Below are positions 15,207-63,326 of a stretch of DNA of 63,326 nucleotides, piece after piece (positions within the stretch are counted from its first letter, which is position 1; each line of letters begins with the position of its first letter). The notes beneath the pieces are model-generated. The model had not been told where the DNA came from. It searched no databases and worked only from the letters and a program-made list of their open reading frames with translations. This DNA comes from a candidate division WOR-3 bacterium (GTDB lineage Bacteria > Hydrothermota > Tepidihabitantia > Tepidihabitantales > Tepidihabitantaceae). Both the position numbers and the translations under genes were made by a program. The DNA lies in NCBI GenBank assembly GCA_026397595.1, contig JAPLUO010000214.1:1-63326 (forward strand). Reading direction: 5' to 3'.

Positions 15207-18200
15207 CTACAACTTGGTCCGGCGCAGGCGGAGGGAGTTGGTGACCACGTTCACTGAGGAAAGGCCCATCGCCACTTCGGCCATGATGGGATGGAGCAGC
15301 CCGAGCATGGCCAGCGGTATCGCGACCACGTTGTAGGCGAACGCCCAGAAGAGGTTTTGCCTTATCTTCACAAAGGTGGCGCGGGAGAGCTTGATTGCGG
15401 AAACAACACCTGTCAGGCTGCCGCGCACGAGTGTGACGTCCGACGATTCAATGGCCACTTCGGTGCCGGTGCCGATGGCGATGCCGACGTTGGCGGCCTT
15501 CAAGGCCGGCGCGTCGTTGATGCCGTCGCCGACCATGGCCACGCTGCCGAACTCTTTCTGCAGGTCCATCACGACCTGCTGCTTCTGCGCGGGCAGGACT
15601 TCCGCGACCACGCGCTCGATTCCGACTTCGCGGGCAATCGACTCCGCAGTCTCATGGTTGTCGCCGGTCAGCATCACTGGCACGATGCCGAGCGCCTTGA
15701 GGCCGGCAATCGCCTCGGCTGAGTCCGGCTTGACCGTGTCGGCCACGCCGATGACGCCGAGCAGTTTTCCTCCGGCCGCGACGTAGAGCGCACTCCGCGC
15801 CCGCTTCTGGAGTTCTGTCGCCGCATCGGTGAGAGCACGGCAGTCAACCCCGCATTCCTTGAGCAGTTCCTCTTTGCCGACCACCACCTCGACGCCACTC
15901 ACCAGGCCTTTCACACCCAGGCCCGGAACAGCTTGAACTTCCGTTGCCTGCGAGAGAAGTTCTTTGGAGTGCGGCAGCGGAGCTGCCGCCTTTCCGGGCT
16001 CGTCCGTCCGGTTCGGAAAAGCGGGAGCTGCGCTCCCGCACTCCAAGGCCCCGGAAGCACCGCAATCCGGTACGGTCCCCACGATTTCGGTCATGTCCCG
16101 CGCCGCGGCGATTACCGCTCCTGCCAGAGGATGTTCCGACCCCTGTTCCACTGCAGCAGCCATCCTCAGTACATCGGCTCGCTGCACCCCGGCGGCCGGA
16201 ATCACGTCGGTGACCGCGGGCCGGCCCTGCGTGATGGTGCCGGTCTTGTCGAGCACGACCGCGCGGACGTCTTTCAGGGTCTGAATCGCCTCTCCCGAGC
16301 GGAAGAGAATCCCGCGCTCCGCGCCCATGCCGGAGCCGACCATCAAGGCGGTCGGAGTCGCAAGCCCCAAGGCGCACGGGCAGGCAATCACCAACACCGC
16401 GACTCCGGCAAAGAACGCGAGCGATACCACCGGTAATTGCGGGTTGACCCATGGCAGGAACTTCGCGGCCCATACGAGCATCGGCTTGAGGCTCGGCGTC
16501 AGGAAGAACCACGCGGCAAAGGTCACCGCTGCGACCAGCAGGATTACAGGTACGAAACGGGCCGTTACCTTGTCGGCAAACGCCTGAATGGGAATCTTGG
16601 TGCCCTGTGCCTGCTCGACCAGCTTGATAACCTGGGAGAGGAACGTGTCTTTGCCTACACGGGTAGCCTCGACCTTGATGAGGCCGTTGCCGTTCACTGT
16701 CGCGCCGATGACCTCGTCGCCGGTCTTCTTCTCGATCGGCAACGACTCGCCGGTCGCCATTGATTCGTCCACGCTGGTGCTGCCTTCGACAATCCGGCCG
16801 TCGGTGGGAATCTTCTCTCCGGGCCGGACAACCATCACGTTGCCGGGCGCGAGTTGCGCAACCGGCACTTCCTTCTCGACGCCCTCAGCCGTTTGAATCC
16901 GCGCGGTGCGCGCACCGAGGGCGACGAGCTTCTTGATCGCCTGTGAGGCCCGGCCCTTTGCGCGCGCCTCGATGTACCGGCCGGTCAGGAACACGGCCAT
17001 CACCATGCCACCGGCGTCGGCAAAGCTCTTTATCGGCAGCCCGGCCAGCACGGCGACCCCGGAAGCCAGCGCCGCGCTCACGCCGAGCACAATCAGCACG
17101 TCCATCGAAGCGGACCCGGCGCGCACCGAACCCCATGCCCCGCGTATCGTGGTCCATCCCGGGCCGAACAGCACCGCGGTGCAGAAGGCGACGTCAATCC
17201 AGACCATCCCCGGGATGTGGACCGCGTGGAGGCCGTGCAGCACCATCAGCAGCATCGGCACCAGCCCGAGAATCCAGGCCCAGACCAGCCGGCTGGAGGC
17301 ACGGCGAAGTTCGGCCTCGGCATGGTCTTCGCTGCCGGCCGTTTCGTGCCTGACTTCGTAACCGACGTCGGTAACCGCCTTCTCAAGCGCGGCGACCGGC
17401 GACACCTTGGGGTCGAACTCGACGATCGCCTTCTCAATGGCGAAGTTCACTGTCGCTGTCTTTACGCCCGGCAGCCGGTTGAGCGCCTTCTCCACGGTGG
17501 CCACGCAGCTCGCACAGCTCATGCCGCCGACCGCAAGTGTCACGGTCTGGGTCTTCCCCAGTTCCGCCTTGTCGAGCAGCACGGGCTCGGGCAAACCGCT
17601 GTCCGCGATTTGTCCTTCGTCCTTCGTCCTTTGTCTTTCTCCCTGCAAGAACCTCTCCGGTTCGGACTGGAACCGCTTCAGGCAGTTCGGGTTGCAGAAG
17701 TAGAAGGTAGTGCCCTTGTAGTCCCACTTCGCCGCCTCCTGCCCTTCCTGAACCACCATCTTGCACACCGGGTCAATGTGAGATTGCCGATTGACGGTTG
17801 CGGATTGTAGAATGTCCGGACCCTTTGTGTCTTCGAGTCTTGGTGGTAAGGTGCCGTCAGTTCTGACTTCTGACTTCCCCCGTACTTTCGTGTCCTTGTG
17901 TCTTTGTTGTGGGATTCCAGCAGTTCTGACCTCTGGACTCTGCATTCTGACTTCTGCCTTCGGTTGCGCTGCCGGCTGAGGTTTGGGCTTGAGTCCAAGG
18001 TACAGGTCCGGGTCAGCCTTGAACTGCTCAAGGCAGCTTTGGCTGCAGAAGTAGTACGTCTTTCCATTGTACTCCCACTTGCCCGCCTCACGGCCCTCGA
18101 TAACGTGCATTCGGCACACCGGGTCAACGTGCGACTTCGCCAGTCCCTCGGCCACCGGCACGACTTCAGGCGTCTTCTGCTCGACCGGCGGTTTCGTATC

Positions 18201-18356
18201 GAAGTGCGACTCCGGGTTCTGCTGGAACTTGCGGGCGCAGACCTTGGAACAGAAGTAGTACGTTACGCCGTCGTACTCGCGCCGGGCAGCCTCCTGCCCC
18301 TCCACAACTTCCATCTTGCAGACCGGGTCAATGTGTCGAATCGGAACTGTCTTCAT
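15207..18356 (-). CDS. copA: copper-translocating P1B-type ATPase with three N-terminal YHS/TRASH domains and one HMA domain
   Basis: Three copies of DPVC(K/R)M.V...YYFC.. modules. [11 protein letters not shown] motif, CPC (ACPCALG), [13 protein letters not shown]. Confidence 0.95.
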
Positions 18357-30738: not shown

Positions 30739-31537
30739 ACTCATCATCCTCTGGCGACCGCTGGTCGCCGCGGTGCTCGGCGGGCTGGTCTGCGGCGTGG
30801 TCGGCGTCTGGGTGGTGATGATGAACATCCCCTTTGTCGGCGTCGCGATGTCGCACGCGGCCTTTGCCGGCGCGGTCACGGGGCTCCTGCTTGGAATCAA
30901 CCCGCTCCTCACCGCCGCGGTCTTCTGCATCGCGGCATCGCTGCTCATCGGCCCGGTCGCCGAGCGCGCCGACATCGAACCCAACGTCTCGCTCGGCATC
31001 ATCTTCTCGGTCGTGCTGGGCTTCGCCTTCCTCGCCATCGGCCTGATGCGCGGCCCGCGGTCTGACGCTCTCAGCCTGATATGGGGAAGCATCCTGCTCG
31101 TCTCCGCGCGCGACCTCGCGCTGATGGCCGGCGCGACCGTGGCCGTGCTGCTCTTCCTCGGGTTGTTCTACAAGGAGATTCAGGCCGTACTGTACAACCG
31201 CGAAATCGCCCGTGCCGTCGGGATACCCGAGCGCGCGCTCTTCTTCGCGATGCTGGTCCTCTGCGGCCTGTCGGTCACCGCCAATCTGAGCACCATCGGC
31301 GGCCTACTCATCTTCAGCCTCATCGTCAACCCGCCGTCCGCGGCCTTTCAGTTGACCTACCGGCTCAAGACGATGTATTTGCTGTCGGCGCTGTTCGGGG
31401 TCCTGTCCTGCCTGGTGGGATTGTTCGTGTCGTGGCTGACCGACGCGCCGGCCGGCGCGGTCATCATCATCGCATCGAGTGTGGTATTTGTGGTGGCGTT
31501 GCTGCTATCGCCCAAGCGAAGTAAGTTAGTGAGTTAG
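30728..31537 (+). CDS. metal ABC transporter permease (ZnuB/TroC family)
   Basis: Polytopic with family-typical ...FVGVAMSHAAFAG.... The start overlaps the ATPase stop. Confidence 0.85.
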   Translation: MPPELIILWRPLVAAVLGGLVCGVVGVWVVMMNIPFVGVAMSHAAFAGAVTGLLLGINPLLTAAVFCIAASLLIGPVAERADIEPNVSLGIIFSVVLGFAFLAIGLMRGPRSDALSLIWGSILLVSARDLALMAGATVAVLLFLGLFYKEIQAVLYNREIARAVGIPERALFFAMLVLCGLSVTANLSTIGGLLIFSLIVNPPSAAFQLTYRLKTMYLLSALFGVLSCLVGLFVSWLTDAPAGAVIIIASSVVFVVALLLSPKRSKLVS

Positions 31538-44140: not shown

Positions 44141-44690
44141 CTCTCTGCTCCTGTCCGACCAGTCCGACGTGTCCGACCGGTCCGACTCCGGACAGCGGTC
44201 CCAGACTCCTTATCTGGTCGGTGTACTCCCGCACGACCTGGGCGAACTTCGCACCCTCAGCCGCGGAAATCCACTCGAGCCGGAGCCGTTCCTCTTCGAC
44301 GCCCAGTTGCTGCATCAGCCGCTTGAGCATCATGGTCCGCTTCAGGGTCTTGTAGTTGCCGCTCTGATAGTGGCAGTCGCCCGGATGGCAGCCACCGATG
44401 AAGACTCCGTCCGCGCCGTCGCGGAAAGCCTGGAGCACGAGCGCGGGGTCCACGGAACCCGAGCACATTACCCTTATCGCCCGCATGTTGGTCGGGTACT
44501 GCAGCCGGGAGGTGCCGGCCAGGTCTGCGCCGGCATACGTGCACCAGTTGCACAGGAATCCGACAATCCTCGGTTCAAACACCTGTCCGCTGTCCGTTGT
44601 CCGCACCTCTGACTGCTGACTTCCGACCTCCGACCTCTGACTTTTGACTTTTGACTTTTGACCCTTGACTTCTAACTTCTCCGTTCCCAC
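44130..44690 (-). CDS. mvhD: methyl-viologen-reducing hydrogenase delta subunit (MvhD/FlpD family)
   Basis: IVGFLCNWCTYAGADLAG...MCSGSV...GGCHPGDCHY. The ~35 N-terminal and ~20 C-terminal residues are low-complexity word DNA, so the true start is uncertain. Confidence 0.85.
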   Translation of the reverse strand: MGTEKLEVKGQKSKVKSQRSEVGSQQSEVRTTDSGQVFEPRIVGFLCNWCTYAGADLAGTSRLQYPTNMRAIRVMCSGSVDPALVLQAFRDGADGVFIGGCHPGDCHYQSGNYKTLKRTMMLKRLMQQLGVEEERLRLEWISAAEGAKFAQVVREYTDQIRSLGPLSGVGPVGHVGLVGQEQRDGG

Positions 44691-57570: not shown

Positions 57571-59028
57571 CTATTGATGGAAAACGGAGAGGAGAGCGGC
57601 GGCGATGATGGGGATTTCGTCGCGGCGGATGGTGCGGAAGTCGAGGACGTATTCGCCGCGCTCTACCCGGCCGAACACCGGCGGGCGATGCAGGCGCATC
57701 CGGCGGGCGAGTTCGTCAACGTGCATCGTTTTGGGCCGTATTGCGACCACGCGCGATTCGAGGCTCTCGGTCGCAAGCGACCCGCCGCCGATTTCCGATA
57801 GCGCGGGCTTGACGGTGAACCCTGCTCTGTCCTGCAGGTCGGCCTGCACCCGCCGCACAAGGTTTCTTGCCTCGCGCTGCATCTGGACCGGGGTCTTGAG
57901 CAGCAACTGGAACAGCGCGTGCTCTTTCACCAGCCGCTCTTCGTCAAGGAAGAGTTCGAGCGTCCGTTCGAGCACCGCATAGGTGAGTTTGCCGCAGCGT
58001 AGCGCGCGGGTGAGCGGGTGTTTCTTCAGGAGGTCGATGTGTTTCTTTTTGCCGACAATGATTCCCGCCTGCGACGCGGCAATCAGCTTGTCCCCGGAGA
58101 AGCAGATGACGTCCGCACCCGCCTTGACCGAGTCCTGCACCAAAGGTTCTTTGGGCAGGCCGTACTTCGAAAGGTCAACGAGCGCCCCTGACCCGAGGTC
58201 GTCAACCACGAGGACCTTGGACTCCCGCGCCAGCGCGACCAACTCATCGAGGCTCACTTCCTTGGTGAACCCGGTAATCTTGTAGTTGGAGGTGTGGACC
58301 CGAAGCAGCAAGGCGGTCTCGGGCGTTAGCGCATTCTTGTAGTCCCGCAGGTGGGTCCGGTTCGTGGTGCCGACCTCGACCATCTTGCAGCCGCTCTGCT
58401 GCATCACATCTGGGATGCGGAACGCGCCGCCGATTTCGATAAGCTGGCCGCGCGAAACAATGACCTCTTTGCCCCTGGCCATCGACGAAAGGATGAGCAT
58501 CGTGGCCGCGCAGTTGTTGTTGACGACCATCGCCGCCTCGGCACCGGTCAGTTCGCACAGCAGCGGCTCGATGTGCCGATAACGGCTGCCCCGCCGTCCG
58601 GTCTCAAGGTCTATTTCAAGGCTCGAGAAATGCTCGCTCACGTCAGCCAGGGCTTCTTGCGCGGCCTTGGCCAGGGGCGCGCGCCCGAGCCCGGTGTGCA
58701 GGATCACACCCAGCCCGTTGATCGCCCGCGTCAGCGTCGGCTTGCGCTCGCGTTCCAGCCGCCGCACCAGTTCATCCTGCGCGAATGCCGCGCTCTCGCC
58801 CGCCTGTATCTTCTGACGCAGTTCGTCGAGGTAAACCCGGATTGCCCGTACTGCCATCCGGCGATGCAGGTGCTCAAGCACCGGCTTCAACTCCTCGCTC
58901 TCGAGCAGCTTGTCCACCGACGGTAGCGCACGGAATCCGGAATCCGCACTCTGACTTCTAGCCTCTAGCTTCTGACTTCTGACTTCGCCCGACCCCTGAC
59001 CCCTGATCCCTGACCCCTTTCCCTTCAC
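57571..59028 (-). CDS. selA: L-seryl-tRNA(Sec) selenium transferase
   Basis: LPSVDKLL..., ...INGLGVILHTGLGRAPL..., ...NNCAATMLIL..., ...FSGDKL.... The GTG start overlaps the mcsB stop (GTGA). The first ~30 aa are word DNA. Confidence 0.9.
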   Translation of the reverse strand: MKGKGSGIRGQGSGEVRSQKLEARSQSADSGFRALPSVDKLLESEELKPVLEHLHRRMAVRAIRVYLDELRQKIQAGESAAFAQDELVRRLERERKPTLTRAINGLGVILHTGLGRAPLAKAAQEALADVSEHFSSLEIDLETGRRGSRYRHIEPLLCELTGAEAAMVVNNNCAATMLILSSMARGKEVIVSRGQLIEIGGAFRIPDVMQQSGCKMVEVGTTNRTHLRDYKNALTPETALLLRVHTSNYKITGFTKEVSLDELVALARESKVLVVDDLGSGALVDLSKYGLPKEPLVQDSVKAGADVICFSGDKLIAASQAGIIVGKKKHIDLLKKHPLTRALRCGKLTYAVLERTLELFLDEERLVKEHALFQLLLKTPVQMQREARNLVRRVQADLQDRAGFTVKPALSEIGGGSLATESLESRVVAIRPKTMHVDELARRMRLHRPPVFGRVERGEYVLDFRTIRRDEIPIIAAALLSVFHQ

Positions 59029-60071
59029 GGATGCACCAGCGTCTCTCTGACAAATGTCGCCCGGCGCTCGTCGCGCTCTGCCGCAGTCAGGCTTTCGCCC
59101 AACATAACCTGCAGGTTCGCCGGCCGGACCAGGATAAGCAACCGCGTCACCTCGGCGAGACTGATTTCGTTCACGATGCCGAGCGCGACCCCGAGCCTGA
59201 GGCTCGCAATCAGGTTTATTGCCTCGTCCGACGAAAGGACGCGCGCGCTCCGCAGCAGCCCGAGCGACCGAAAGACCTTGTCCTCAACCTCGACCCGCAG
59301 CTTGTTCATCAGGTACTCGCGCGCCTTGCGTTCGTATTGAATCACTTGCCGGCTGATGTCGGCAATCGTCTCGATGATTTCCCATTCGGTCTGGCCCACG
59401 GTCTTCTGGTTGGAAATCTGGAAGAAGTTGCCCTTGGTCTCGCTGCCCTCGCCGTACAAGCCACGCACCGCGAGCCCGATGTGCAGGGCCCCGCGCAGCA
59501 CCTTCTCAATCTCGCGGGTGATGACCAGCGCGGGCAGGTGCACGAGCACCGAGGCCCGCATGCCGGTGCCGAGGTTGGTCGGGCACGCGGTCAGGAAACC
59601 GAACTCGGTTGAGAACGCGTACTGCAACTGCGTCTCCAGCTTCTCGTCGAGCGCCGCTGCGGCGGTGAATGCCTCAGGGAAGTCGAGGCCGGAAGCCATC
59701 ACCTGGAACCGGAGGTGATCCTCTTCGTTGACCATCAGGCTAACGGTCTCATCCTTGCTGACGTACAGCCCGCGCCTCGCCTTGGAGGCGACAAAGTCCG
59801 GTGACGCCAGATGCCTCTCTACCAGGTACTGGCCGTGCGGTTCGGAGAGCTGCTCGTTGTCGAGAAACTGACCCTGGGTCAGGTAGCCGGCGTCGGAGAG
59901 CGCCCAGCGTACGCCTTCAACGGTACGCTCGTGGTCGCTCGGCCTTGCCCGGTGCGGGAACGGCACGTCCGACAGGTTCCGTGCGAGGCGCACGCGCGTC
60001 GAAACAACGACGTCGGCTTCCGGACCGGTAGCCGAGAGCCACTTGCCGACGACGTTGCTTGCGAGTTTCAT
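59025..60071 (-). CDS. mcsB: protein arginine kinase (ATP:guanido phosphotransferase)
   Basis: ...STRVRLARNL...PFP..., ...VNEEDHLR..., ...LTACPTNLGTGMRASV.... Confidence 0.9.
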   Translation of the reverse strand: MKLASNVVGKWLSATGPEADVVVSTRVRLARNLSDVPFPHRARPSDHERTVEGVRWALSDAGYLTQGQFLDNEQLSEPHGQYLVERHLASPDFVASKARRGLYVSKDETVSLMVNEEDHLRFQVMASGLDFPEAFTAAAALDEKLETQLQYAFSTEFGFLTACPTNLGTGMRASVLVHLPALVITREIEKVLRGALHIGLAVRGLYGEGSETKGNFFQISNQKTVGQTEWEIIETIADISRQVIQYERKAREYLMNKLRVEVEDKVFRSLGLLRSARVLSSDEAINLIASLRLGVALGIVNEISLAEVTRLLILVRPANLQVMLGESLTAAERDERRATFVRETLVHP

Positions 60072-60177
60072 GTCCGGAGTAGTGACCTAGTGGTCAAGTG
60101 ACCCAGTGCCCCAGTGAAGGAGATGCAGGCAGTGTCTGCGCGCCCGGCCACTTGGACACTAGACCACTGGACCACTT

Positions 60178-60666
60178 TCATTCGGTCTCTGCTTTCCGTA
60201 ACTGATCGCGCAGGGCCGCGGCCTTTTCGTAGTCCTCTGCCTGAATCGCGCTGGACAGGGCCTCGCGGATCTTCTGGACGTTCATCTTCACCTGTGCCTG
60301 CTTCCGGCCGCCGCTCGCGGTCCGGCCGACGTGCCGCACCGCGCCGTGAATCCGGCGCACCAGCGGCACCAGCTCGTCGTGGAACGAAACGTAGCACTCG
60401 CCGCAACCCAGCCGCCCCTGTCGCTTGAACTCGGCGTACGACATGCCGCACTTCCCGCAGACCAGCTTGGTGTCGCCTTCGTCAACGCGGTTCTTCAGCT
60501 CGGCAATGATCTCCGCGACCCCGGCCTTCAGCTTTTCGACTTCGGTGAACCCGCGCTGCCGCGCGCACGTGCCGCAGACCGAAATCTCCGTGACCTTGCC
60601 GTCCTTGTCGAGCTGGCTGACCTTCATGGTCGCCTCGCCCTTGCCGCACAGGTCACAGAGTTTCAT
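60178..60666 (-). CDS. mcsA: McsA-like protein (zinc-finger pairs plus a UVR motif)
   Basis: CDLCG...CGTC, CGKCG...GCGECY, and the C-terminal UVR motif ...AIQAEDYEKAAALRDQL.... Confidence 0.8.
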   Translation of the reverse strand: MKLCDLCGKGEATMKVSQLDKDGKVTEISVCGTCARQRGFTEVEKLKAGVAEIIAELKNRVDEGDTKLVCGKCGMSYAEFKRQGRLGCGECYVSFHDELVPLVRRIHGAVRHVGRTASGGRKQAQVKMNVQKIREALSSAIQAEDYEKAAALRDQLRKAETE

Positions 60667-60672
60667 AGGAAA

Positions 60673-60804
60673 GGATTCAAGGGGTCAAGGATTCCAGCAT
60701 TCAAGGGATCGGGCAAACGAGGGATCAGAGAATTGAGGGGTCGAGGATTTCGGGATTCGAGGGTCAGGACACTTGACCCCTCGATTCCTTGACTCCTTGA
60801 ATCC
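60673..60804. mobile_element. 132-bp MITE-like intergenic element with ~23-bp terminal inverted repeats
   Basis: ggattcaaggggtcaaggattcc (60673-60695) is complementary to cgattccttgactccttgaatcc (60782-60804) at about 20 of 23 positions. The interior consists of related gggat/gaggg words. The element fills the mcsA-lolD gap. Confidence 0.5.
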
Positions 60805-60812
60805 TCTCCTGC

Positions 60813-61586
60813 TCACTTCTCCTCGGCAAGCTTACCGTCGGCAAGCTGCAGCCGGCGCGTCGCCCGGTCCGCCACTGCTCGATTGTGGGTCACTACCAGA
60901 ATCGTCATCTTCCTTTCACTGCTAAGTCGCACCATCAGGTCAACCAGCGCCGCTGCCGAAGTCACATCGAGGTTGCCCGTCGGCTCATCCGCCAGAATCA
61001 CCGCCGGGTTGTTTACCAGCGCGCGCCCCATTGCCGCGCGCGCCTGCTCGCCGCCCGAAAGCTCAGCCGGCCGGTGAGTGAGCCGGGACACGAACCCAAT
61101 CTCCTCAAGCACCTGGTGCGCCCGGGCTGTGGCCTCGGGCCGCGCCACACCCGCGACCAGCAGCGGCATCGCTACATTCTCCAGAACTGTGAACTCAGAC
61201 AGGAGGTGATGAAACTGGAAAACGAAGCCCACTTTCCGGTTTCTCAGCTCGTGGAGCTGCGATTCAGAGTAGCTGAAAACGTCCAGCGAATCAAGAAACA
61301 CGCGGCCCCGGGTCGGCCGGTCGAGTGCGCCGAGCACGTGGAGTAGCGTCGACTTTCCAGTACCGGACGGCCCGAGAATCGCCAGCAGTTCGCCCCGCTG
61401 CACCTCCAGGTCCACACCCCGCAGGATTTCCAGCCGCTCGGGCCCGGTCTCGAAGACACGCCAGACGTCCTGCGCCTGTAGGACAGGCGAGTGGTCAAGT
61501 GGTCTAGTGGTCAAGTAGTCTAGTGCGGATTGTCCGGCCGGACACTGGTGCACTGAACCACTGGACCACTTCTTCTCTTTACTCAT
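60813..61586 (-). CDS. lolD: lipoprotein-releasing / MacB-type ABC transporter ATP-binding protein
   Basis: GPSGTGKST, LSGGEQARAAMGRAL, ILADEPTGNLD. The first ~33 aa are encoded by ccactggaccac-type word DNA. The ATG overlaps the lolC/E stop by 8 nt. Confidence 0.85.
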   Translation of the reverse strand: MSKEKKWSSGSVHQCPAGQSALDYLTTRPLDHSPVLQAQDVWRVFETGPERLEILRGVDLEVQRGELLAILGPSGTGKSTLLHVLGALDRPTRGRVFLDSLDVFSYSESQLHELRNRKVGFVFQFHHLLSEFTVLENVAMPLLVAGVARPEATARAHQVLEEIGFVSRLTHRPAELSGGEQARAAMGRALVNNPAVILADEPTGNLDVTSAAALVDLMVRLSSERKMTILVVTHNRAVADRATRRLQLADGKLAEEK

Positions 61587-62799
61587 ACCGGATCGCTTCC
61601 AGCGGCACCAGCCGCGCCGCCTTCAGTGCCGGGTAGACCGTGGCCGCAAACGTGATGACGATGGCGGCGACGCAGACTAATACGAAGTCCTGCGGCAGCA
61701 TCTGTACCGGCAGGTTCTTGATGAAATAGACGTCGCCGGGCAGCGAGACGAAACGGTACTTGTTCAGCAGCCAGCACGCCACGAGGCCGAAGCCAGCCCC
61801 CGCGAACGTGCCGATGATGCCGATGAACCCGCCGGCCAGCACGAAGATGCGCGTCACCGTCGATGACTTCGCGCCCATCGCCTTCAGGATGCCGATTTCG
61901 CGAGTCTTGCGGATGACCATCATCGTCAGCATGCCGATGATGTTGAACGCGGCAACGAGCACAATCAGTACCAGCACGATGAACGTCACGGCCTTTTCCA
62001 GCCGCAGCGCGGTGAAGAGATTGCGGTTCTGCATTATCCAGTCCGTTGCCCGGTAGGGATAGCCGAGTTGCCGCGTGATGCGCCGCGAGATGCGGTCCGA
62101 CGCATAGACGTCCTTCACCCGAACCTCGAAGCCGGTAATCATATCCTCCATGCCGAGAAACTGCTGGATAGCGGCAAGCGAGAGGTAGATGAAGCTCGAA
62201 TTGTACTCGTACATGCCGGAGTCGAAGATGCCGTTCACGCGGAAGTAGCGGGTACGGGGCATGAACCCGAGCGGCGTGCTGGTCCCGCCGAACGGCGAGG
62301 CGAGGTTCAGCCGATCACCGACCGAAAGGCCGAGCATTCGCGCCAGTTCCACGCCGATGACCACGCCGCTCGAATCGAAGGCAAACTTCCCCTGGACGAT
62401 GGTGCCCGAGATACCGGTGACCTCGCGCTCGTGCTGCGGGTCAACGCCCCGAATCACCACGCCTTCGACCCCGTTATCGGTCCGCACCAGCGTCTTGGCG
62501 TAGACGAACGGCGCGACCGACACGACGCCCGCAACCCGGGCAATCTGCCGGCGGAGCGAGTCGCCGGTCTCCGCGTACGGGATCGGCGCGTACGAGTACT
62601 TGGCCACGACGATATGGGGAGTCGCGCCGAGAATCCGGTCCCTCAGTTCCTGGTGGAACCCGTTCTCGACTGAGAGCACGATGAGGATTGCCGCAACGCC
62701 GACAAACACACCGCCCATGGCAATCGCGGTGATGCCGGATATGGCGCGCCTGCCCCGTCCGCGCAGGTACCGCCCCGCCATGAAAAGCTCAAAGCGCAT
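61579..62799 (-). CDS. lipoprotein-releasing system permease (LolC/LolE family, FtsX/MacB-type)
   Basis: FELFMAGRYLRGR..., a periplasmic MacB-PCD-like middle region, and a C-terminal FtsX domain. Confidence 0.85.
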   Translation of the reverse strand: MRFELFMAGRYLRGRGRRAISGITAIAMGGVFVGVAAILIVLSVENGFHQELRDRILGATPHIVVAKYSYAPIPYAETGDSLRRQIARVAGVVSVAPFVYAKTLVRTDNGVEGVVIRGVDPQHEREVTGISGTIVQGKFAFDSSGVVIGVELARMLGLSVGDRLNLASPFGGTSTPLGFMPRTRYFRVNGIFDSGMYEYNSSFIYLSLAAIQQFLGMEDMITGFEVRVKDVYASDRISRRITRQLGYPYRATDWIMQNRNLFTALRLEKAVTFIVLVLIVLVAAFNIIGMLTMMVIRKTREIGILKAMGAKSSTVTRIFVLAGGFIGIIGTFAGAGFGLVACWLLNKYRFVSLPGDVYFIKNLPVQMLPQDFVLVCVAAIVITFAATVYPALKAARLVPLEAIRYE

Positions 62800-62850
62800 A
62801 CGCTACCCCGGACAATTCAGAAGTCAGAATGCAGCTACCAGAATTCAGAA

Positions 62851-63210
62851 CTAGGACCTCGACTTTGCGGTGACGACCGACTTGACTACAATCCGAATGA
62901 GCTCGTCCGCCTCGACCAGCGGGGCAGTCAGCAAGTCCGCAGGCATCAGCTTCGTTCGACGGAGCAGCTTCAGCCAGTACTCAGCCTCGCGCAACTCCTT
63001 CAGGACGACCTGTAGCTTGTGTACGAAATCGGCCCGGCTCTCTGCGCCACGTGCCTCCTGGAAGTTCGCACCGGCAGAGGCGCTTGCCCGCACCAGTTGC
63101 CCGACCAGATGCCTGCCGGTCGGCGAACGCTGCAGACGCACGGTCAGCGCTATCACGTCGGCCGCAAAGTCCAGCAGCCTGTCCCCAAGGTCCTTCTGAC
63201 AATTCTGCAT
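62851..63210 (-). CDS. four-helix-bundle protein (23S rRNA intervening-sequence protein family, TIGR02436-like)
   Basis: ...LVRASASAGANFQEARGAESRADFVHKLQVVLKELREAEYWLKLL.... Confidence 0.85.
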   Translation of the reverse strand: MQNCQKDLGDRLLDFAADVIALTVRLQRSPTGRHLVGQLVRASASAGANFQEARGAESRADFVHKLQVVLKELREAEYWLKLLRRTKLMPADLLTAPLVEADELIRIVVKSVVTAKSRS

Positions 63211-63326
63211 TCTAGTCTCTGAATTCTGACTTCTGAATTCTCCGTGTCAACCCGCCAGCCTGCGTCCGAGTTCCTTCCGGTAGTTCTGCATTCTAGTCTC
63301 TGAATTCTGACTTCTGAATTCTCCGT
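63203..63326. repeat. two identical 43-bp direct repeats (63203-63245 and 63284-63326) separated by 38 bp
   Basis: ttctgcattctagtctctgaattctgacttctgaattctccgt occurs twice. Each copy carries an ATG on the minus strand (MQNCQKD... intact; MQNYRKELGRRLAG* truncated). Confidence 0.85.

Follow-up and report, generated by a model that had tools for sequence, protein, structure and literature searches.

A four-helix-bundle gene enclosed by inverted heptamer arrays at an operon junction of a candidate division WOR-3 bacterium: a probable free-standing counterpart of 23S rRNA intervening sequences

Introduction

The closest described systems to the locus reported here are the intervening sequences (IVSs) of 23S rRNA. 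The S23p IVS of Coxiella burnetii has a 28-bp stem with tandem heptamers (GACAGAT) before the ATG of its gene, and RNase III cuts in this stem (PMC4990558); the Leptospira IVS is another open reading frame (ORF)-bearing intervening sequence of 23S rRNA (Ralph & McClelland 1993, as cited in PMC4990558). The protein family concerned, a four-helix bundle (4HB; PF05635), is also named for Avd, the accessory protein of diversity-generating retroelements (DGRs) (PMC10053308), and 4HB genes inside cas operons have been noted, without their arms (PMC3936711).

Abundant heptamer repeats have been reported from several bacteria. The relevant passages give GGGAATC in Xanthomonas and GGGGAYT in Nostoc (PMC4692102), MTYCTGA (×5 paired sites) and GGACCGG (×4) in Geobacter metallireducens (PMC2700814) and TAACTGA in Beggiatoaceae (PMC4679880), and the 4HB/IVS protein family goes unmentioned in them. 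As far as these passages describe them, such heptamers resemble the arrays studied here in being abundant and intergenic, often in inverted pairs, with an orientation bias relative to genes and occasional in-frame copies within genes, and MTYCTGA, from Geobacter, is complementary to the unit of the present cassette. Unlike the heptamer arrays in those passages, however, the present arrays enclose a gene.

A further parallel is offered by REPIN–RAYT systems, which are said to have been described by Nunvar in 2010 and by Bertels and Rainey in 2011. RAYT is a HUH/Y1 transposase acting on a fixed palindrome. What the two kinds of system have in common is a gene between inverted copies of a short repeat, further copies of which are scattered without a gene over tens to hundreds of positions in the same genome, together with several families per genome, each gene having its own repeat. 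The present gene, however, matches only PF05635 and TIGR02436 and not a HUH/Y1 transposase, and its repeat is a tandem array; we know of no catalytic motif in the 4HB protein.

Here we analyzed a 63,326-nt stretch of DNA (the window), which is an entire contig (C415) of a metagenome-assembled genome (MAG) of a WOR-3 bacterium. The source genome (G000; 4.7 Mb, 94% complete) consists of 494 contigs with 6.6% contamination; relatives are given other G-numbers, and their 4HB loci L-numbers. At the end of the window lies a cassette that shares with the 23S rRNA IVSs a PF05635 protein, an ORF that fills the loop closed by a long terminal stem, tandem heptamers leading up to the start codon (GAAnnCA here, GACAGAT in the Coxiella IVS) and a suspected mobility for which no enzyme is encoded. 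Unlike the IVSs, which occupy helix 9, 25 or 45 of 23S rRNA, it is located between the protein genes lysS and lolE, and it departs from them in two defining features, the location in rRNA and the presence of RNase III, of which no gene was found in this lineage. We take the cassette to be a free-standing counterpart of the ORF-bearing 23S rRNA IVSs. No description of an arm-enclosed 4HB layout outside rRNA was found in the literature searched.

Results and discussion

Structure of the cassette

The 4HB gene of the cassette (geneB; 62,851–63,210, minus strand, as are the other cassette features and lolE) encodes a protein of 119 aa, which in profile searches scored above the curated cut-offs of both PF05635 (56.1 bits, cut-off 33.8; E=4.8e-15) and TIGR02436 (74.3 bits, cut-off 24; E=8e-21). 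Its closest solved homolog is PDB 2RLD (E=9e-16 across residues 8–116), with five chains in the entry, and the four-helix bundle is homologous to Avd. A DGR/Avd identity was rejected, since no reverse transcriptase gene was found beside any 4HB gene; the three RVT_1 genes of the genome lie on contigs C142, C164 and C398, none of which carries a 4HB gene.

The gene is preceded by a purine-rich leader (the 5' arm; 63,203–63,245; purine fraction 0.67) made of GAAnnCA heptamers, with the ATG (63,208–63,210) inside the last of them. The pyrimidine-rich 3' arm (62,809–62,853) runs from the stop codon TAG to a point 10 nt short of the start of the host gene downstream, a lolE-like permease in the ORF list (61,579–62,799); the upstream host gene, lysS, is on contig C97. 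The first-pass annotation had reported perfect 17-bp inverted repeats around the gene. These were confirmed (the 17-mer AATTCAGAAGTCAGAAT is present exactly at 62,814–62,830 on the plus strand and at 63,223–63,239 and 63,304–63,320 on the minus strand), and the full inverted repeat proved to be longer, with 42-nt arms of CAGAAnn heptamers (62,809–62,850 and 63,203–63,244) that are 86% complementary. We scored flank complementarity by local alignment of the upstream flank with the reverse-complemented downstream flank: geneB reached 60, and 300 random windows of the same geometry gave a mean of 18 and a maximum of 31. RNA folding paired the arms in a single terminal stem, present in the minimum free energy (MFE) and centroid structures alike (z=−3.4), and according to this prediction a stem of ∼42 bp can close exactly around the ORF. 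The profile matches, the inverted repeat and the fold all support the earlier proposal of an IVS-family gene inside a long potential stem outside rRNA.

The leader is present twice. The distal copy (63,284–63,326; 43 nt) ends at the contig end and is identical to the proximal one, as the first-pass annotation had stated, 38 nt away from it; both belong to a 71-nt direct repeat (63,175–63,245 and 63,256–63,326) of 87% identity. Between the two leader copies, and headed by the distal one, the ORF list gives a stump of 14 codons (63,247–63,291; MQNYRKELGRRLAG and stop). The distal copy is a second 5' arm, which also pairs with the 3' arm (62,809–62,853 with 63,281–63,325; 45 nt, 87%).

A search of Rfam with positions 60,000–63,326 gave no match, and an intrinsic terminator was rejected as the identity of the 3' arm, there being no T-run after it. 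The only ORF of the cassette with family support is the 4HB gene, no transposase being found, and the flanks (...taccggt/ACGGAG and GTCCGG/ggtagcgt) have no common direct repeat that would indicate a target-site duplication; the cassette thus shows neither of the two marks, an encoded transposase or a target-site duplication, by which a transposon or MITE is recognized. As a separate observation, three sigma-70-like hexamer pairs were found in the leader copies (63,209–63,318, minus strand; TTGACA-16-CAGAAT and, twice, TTCAGA-17-TAGAAT), compared with 0.1 expected in shuffles, and the −10-like TAGAAT overlaps the ATG.

Inverted flanks at other 4HB genes

The genome contains ∼26 PF05635 genes and five longer relatives. 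Inverted flanks, whose presence at other 4HB genes the first-pass annotation had left to be catalogued, proved to be the rule: 21 of the 24 short paralogs lay above the 99th percentile of the random windows in flank complementarity. A tandem repeat peculiar to the gene typically precedes each short paralog and reappears behind it in reverse complement, for example, GGAGTTA/TAACTCC, GTGAACC/GGTTCAC and GGATTTT/AAAATCC. Beyond this genome, 131 of 143 relatives of geneB from public genomes and metagenomes of many phyla had arms (score of at least 27), and the repeat unit shifted with protein identity, from CAGAAnn above 60% to CAAAAGn, then TGCAAAA and then CAACATC/GAACGCC.

The pairing is thus not a matter of chance. 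The 17-mer occurs only five times in the 4.7-Mb genome, and 88% of 4HB genes are bracketed compared with ∼0.3% of other genes (HypA-like, nitroreductase-like and so on), which lie between same-family inverted arrays at roughly the frequency expected from array density. Related arms were shared by the most similar paralogs (6 of the 15 top pairs above the 95th percentile), but a Mantel test of protein against arm similarity over 22 paralogs gave a weak correlation (r=0.08, P=0.13), common arms being confined to the closest pairs. Among orthologs, cognate arms paired modestly better than non-cognate ones (44.9 versus 33.4), the cognate arm being the best partner for seven of nine 3' arms but only two of nine 5' arms. 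It should be noted that duplexfold on 200-nt flanks was uninformative in this GC-rich genome.

The number of 4HB genes ranges from 12 to 31 per genome in the genus and from 0 to 10 in sister genera. Array density rose with this number (rho=0.50, P=0.03) in a small sample of 20-kb stretches from related genomes, whose points are non-independent. The five longer proteins (∼200–270 aa; C64, C122, C172, C196 and C359) have a weak N-terminal match to PF05635 and no bracketing arms; at least two of them (C122 and C172) have a small heptamer hairpin just upstream.

A dispersed family of heptamer arrays

Tandem repeats of period 7 dominate this genome (1,184 arrays at a TRF score of at least 36, compared with 104 of period 6 and 284 of period 8), and gene-less heptamer or octamer arrays occupy ∼1,900 sites, 41 of them in the window. 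Arm-like copies were detected by blastn on ∼70 contigs, and 113 gene-less sites have an 11-mer in common with the cassette arms. The 3' arm is 87–90% identical to gene-less copies at C234:10,021–10,063 and C234:31,406–31,449. Judged by sequence, the cassette arms are copies of one ∼45-nt repeat family dispersed through the genome. In the window itself, the first-pass annotation had connected four loci with the arms by common words. Three of them, 17,861–17,877 and 17,939–17,961 (minus strand, in direct orientation) and 58,950–58,986, indeed have the cassette unit (TTCTGAC/GTCAGAA), but the fourth (44,618–44,671) has another unit. The further suggestion that solo loci are relatives of such cassettes is borne out by the 113 sites; that some may be footprints would fit the lone arms kept at a second slot (see below), with the direction unproven.

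Inverted array pairs showed a bimodal distribution of loop length, with 70 gene-less hairpins of loops below 100 nt and a second mode at 300–600 nt, in which 11 of 25 pairs contain a 4HB gene. When solo arrays were matched to cassette arms as possible parents, 801 of 1,899 sites matched, compared with 685±88 under the null (P∼0.1), a comparison confounded by arm length, and cassette arms did not occupy a more central position among the repeats than solo arrays drawn at random.

Several individual arrays deserve mention. A 1,049-aa open frame (15,207–18,356, minus strand) runs through four arrays at 17,612–17,961, both TTCTGAC arrays included, which are either translated or fuse adjacent frames. 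On C35 (∼17,490–17,560), a 63-nt array of GGTCTCC/CGTCCCC units forms an in-frame part of a Wzt/TagH-like ABC ATPase gene (minus strand, downstream of the C35 4HB cassette) and adds ∼21 residues (ERSPVPRPPSSVTGPQSSVSR) ahead of the Walker A region. A gene-less hairpin at C234:10,000–10,160 is 87.5% identical over 64 nt to the cassette 3' arm; the stretch in common takes in the position of the TAG and runs into the beginning of the gene that follows (GCGTATGCGYTTTGAG), both downstream genes starting with MRFE, and its 48-nt loop resembles the sequence after a lone arm at the der–LCP junction of G009 (see below). We considered this loop (C234:10,070–10,110) as a decayed 4HB gene, but the similarity was too weak to claim.

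Arm polarity and transcription

The arms are oriented with respect to transcription. In 20 of 22 paralogs (P=1e-4) and 100 of 116 relatives, the first arm along the 4HB gene was the purine-rich one. Gene-less hairpins behaved in the same way: 50 of 72 were located between co-directional genes, and in 45 of these 50 the purine-rich arm came first (P=4e-9). We also considered replication direction as the cause of polarity and rejected it, as the sign of local GC skew predicted polarity in only 34 of 55 cases and thus did worse than gene direction. Transcription is therefore the better predictor, although GC skew barely tracked gene strand bias (rho=0.13) and is a poor proxy for replication here. 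One possible filter on polarity is that a C/U-rich arm transcribed first would be an exposed Rho-loading tract, whereas a purine arm would not.

In 21 of the 23 cases that could be called, the 4HB gene pointed the same way as the gene upstream of it. By this co-orientation, the present cassette would most likely be transcribed by read-through from lysS, and, given the shared polarity, cassettes and gene-less hairpins look like one class that is constrained by the host transcript.

A preference for co-directional junctions is also what would be expected if the hairpins were ordinary operon punctuation, that is, mRNA stabilizers or insulators evolving fast by slippage, in whose loops 4HB genes persist. 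Nothing would then be mobile, and slot diversity would reflect allelic exchange through conserved flanking genes. Hairpins do occur at many operon junctions: octamer hairpins of one family (AGTGGTCA) lie on both sides of lolD (60,081–60,176 and, at the lolE–lolD junction, 61,490–61,570, gene-less, minus strand), so that successive junctions each have a hairpin. (The lolD start as listed, 61,586, is probably over-extended through the array.) However, punctuation would not account for arms that travel with the gene and whose unit drifts with protein identity across phyla, for close paralogs at different sites sharing arms or for the marked excess of bracketing at 4HB genes over other genes, and in-frame arrays inside coding genes suit insertion better than selected punctuation. 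We regard this explanation as unlikely, and return to it below with the slot comparisons.

RNase III and the 23S rRNA gene

The layout of the cassette recalls the Coxiella IVS in its stem and in the tandem heptamers before the ATG. The arms might accordingly pair in a lysS–4HB–lolE transcript, from which a double-strand-specific endonuclease would excise the 4HB mRNA, in parallel with RNase III excising the Coxiella and Leptospira IVSs, and selection on the RNA stem would keep the arms complementary. The stem in the MFE fold, the arm polarity and the gene co-orientation along transcription are in favour of such an RNA-level mimic. On the other hand, no RNase III gene was detected in the source genome by PF00636, PF14622 or TIGR02191, although positive controls responded, which does not support the RNase III-type processing that the first-pass annotation had suggested looking for. 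By PF14622, 39 of the 41 genomes of the order (G000–G040) had none either, among them the 11 genomes of the genus, a genome in a single contig and another that is 100% complete. The two genomes with a PF14622 hit belong to one sister family; a lineage-wide loss of RNase III, if real, would bear on how rRNA is matured.

Selection on an RNA stem should also leave a wobble signature, and none was seen in the arm mismatches of 23 cassettes (47 sense-strand G:U, 68 A:C and 153 transversions); the difference between G:U and A:C (P=0.06) was in the direction opposite to RNA-stem selection. Moreover, several orthologs have a spacer of 20–70 nt between the arm and the ATG. IVS-style excision by RNase III is thus unlikely in this lineage, given the missing gene and the lack of G:U bias in the sequences compared, and we hold excision from the transcript in general to be improbable. 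The arms may rather owe their complementarity to copying from one to the other at the DNA level, for example, by template switching at quasi-palindromes. The 23S rRNA gene of the same genome (C422:25,071–28,070), a comparison proposed earlier, is 3,000 nt long against a model of 2,925 positions and contains no IVS-sized insert and no tandem arrays.

State of the lysS–lolE junction in relatives

In nearly all the relatives examined from the order, where the contig reaches, lolE comes directly after lysS, and the gap between them varies in content. Within the genus, G005, G007 and G008 have a cassette of 500–530 nt there, CACAAAGG octamers make up a 120-nt hairpin in G002, G004 and G006 (and in G009, by its 3' arm) and G003 has a 91-nt AGGATTC hairpin. 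In other genera the gap is mostly 5–137 nt without hairpins, and metagenome contigs provided further cassette-bearing copies of this slot, two of them from other genera (L167 and L169).

Close relatives may differ in slot state. In the lolE tree, which is poorly resolved overall, the hairpin-bearing G003 pairs with the cassette-bearing G008 (97/97 support); the sister of G000 is G009 (96/100), and this pair probably differs as well, the loop of G009 being unassembled. At least three classes of cassette gene, ∼70% identical in nucleotides, occupy the slot, compared with an identity of 79–89% for lolE, and in the most similar lolE pair (G000 and L164, 89%) the 4HB genes are only 69% identical. 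Leader copies are found in tandem (three in L165 and two in L166), and L162 and L166 have an extra 3' gene stump and a second 3' arm.

The der–LCP junction and probable movement between slots

In a nucleotide tree, geneB grouped with L086 (of G007) and L160 (of G005) with 94/96 support, apart from the lysS–lolE genes of the genus. Both L086 and L160 occupy a different junction, that of der with an LCP-family gene. A nucleotide AU test rejected the grouping that lolE would predict, of geneB with L164 and L159 (P=0.009); a protein-level AU test of genus monophyly at the slot did not reject vertical descent (P=0.34), and a sliding-window test of geneB for mosaicism gave no clear breakpoint. Given the protein-level result and the poorly resolved lolE tree, slot diversity could stem from homologous exchange via the flanking genes, which, like the lysS–lolE cassettes of other genera, would suit hairpins that are mere operon punctuation; the grouping of geneB with the genes of another slot speaks against it.

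The der–LCP slot is likewise variable. G005 and G007 have a cassette here, G000 and G009 have just a 5' arm and G008 just a 3' arm, and the slot is taken up by unrelated hairpins in G002, G004, G006 and G010. In G000 the junction (C234:31,358–31,560) has no gene; its lone purine-rich arm (31,406–31,449) is 90% identical to the lysS–lolE arm, and the structure is nested, this CAGAAnn arm lying in the loop of a GGGTTCA-family hairpin. These data fit a der–LCP-type cassette having been copied into the lysS–lolE slot in this lineage, the donor slot since having eroded to an arm. More generally, lone arms at the der–LCP slot fit cassette footprints, the direction being unproven. In G005, two leaders precede the gene at this slot and a third follows it, ahead of a short loop and the 3' arm, so that the gene lies between direct leader copies; one crossover joining a circle that carries a leader to a hairpin already in place would be expected to yield this product.

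The duplicated leader and the contig end

The window ends at 63,326, and the cassette is cut off there. At its end, C97 carries lysS followed by a variant leader and by the 5'-terminal 73 codons of a gene (geneA) 94% identical to geneB, and C97 is therefore the other side of the break. The two contigs represent either two tandem cassettes or two strain haplotypes in the bin, between which the break, at 6.6% contamination, allows no distinction.

The tandem copy of the 5' end might then be an assembly artefact, produced by a de Bruijn graph passing the leader twice or by the joining of strain variants: the contig terminates exactly where the repeated leader ends, the MAG is fragmented and contaminated as stated above and C97 has the near-identical 5' half. 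However, only 27 of the first 36 nt of the stump match geneB and 25 match geneA, and the stump is therefore a re-read of neither. In addition, double or triple leaders and stumps are found within single contigs of independent assemblies of relatives (L160, L162, L165 and L166), the stumps and duplicated arms of L162, L165 and L166 being like the present ones. An artefact is, in our judgement, highly improbable. The first-pass annotation had taken the truncated copy for a paralog. Its best match among orthologs of this slot is L158 (28 of 36 nt), about as close as geneB, and it looks more like a stump left by cassette turnover.

Proposed turnover of cassettes between slots

The explanation that we favour, with moderate confidence, is that of an IVS-like cassette turned over at the DNA level through its arms. 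Whole cassettes, gene and arms together, would be copied between a few fixed intergenic slots, where cassettes of other classes or hairpins without a gene would take their place and erosion would leave single arms behind; the probable cause would be recombination, or template switching, at these repeated arms. The duplicated leader and the 14-codon stump would be the scar of such an event, the stump being a remnant of an earlier occupant of the slot, and the transcript would constrain which insertions survive, as arm polarity indicates. Against this explanation, neither a mobility enzyme nor a target-site duplication nor a direct observation of movement was found.

Implications

The locus ties together two old loose ends, the origin of 23S rRNA IVSs and the meaning of abundant bacterial heptamer repeats. 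The IVS gene family lies almost always within inverted heptamer arrays, at ordinary operon junctions and in many phyla. Our analysis adds fixed slots whose occupants, be they cassettes, lone arms or hairpins without a gene, are exchanged for one another within one genus, a cassette gene that groups with the genes of another slot as evidence for movement, a strict arm polarity relative to transcription that is common to cassettes and gene-less hairpins, and a negative G:U test. Since RNase III is not detectable in the host lineage, the processing model of rRNA IVSs is not the general explanation.

By analogy with RAYT, the 4HB protein might also be a trans-acting partner of the arrays, an oligomeric bundle (homologs are pentamers) that would bind about five tandem units of its own family and both regulate and spread the hundreds of gene-less arrays of that family. 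We consider this doubtful; if true, cassette and arrays would form a RAYT/REPIN-like symbiosis in which the protein partner binds nucleic acid but is not an enzyme, and rRNA intervening sequences and bacterial heptamer repeats would have a common explanation for their origin.
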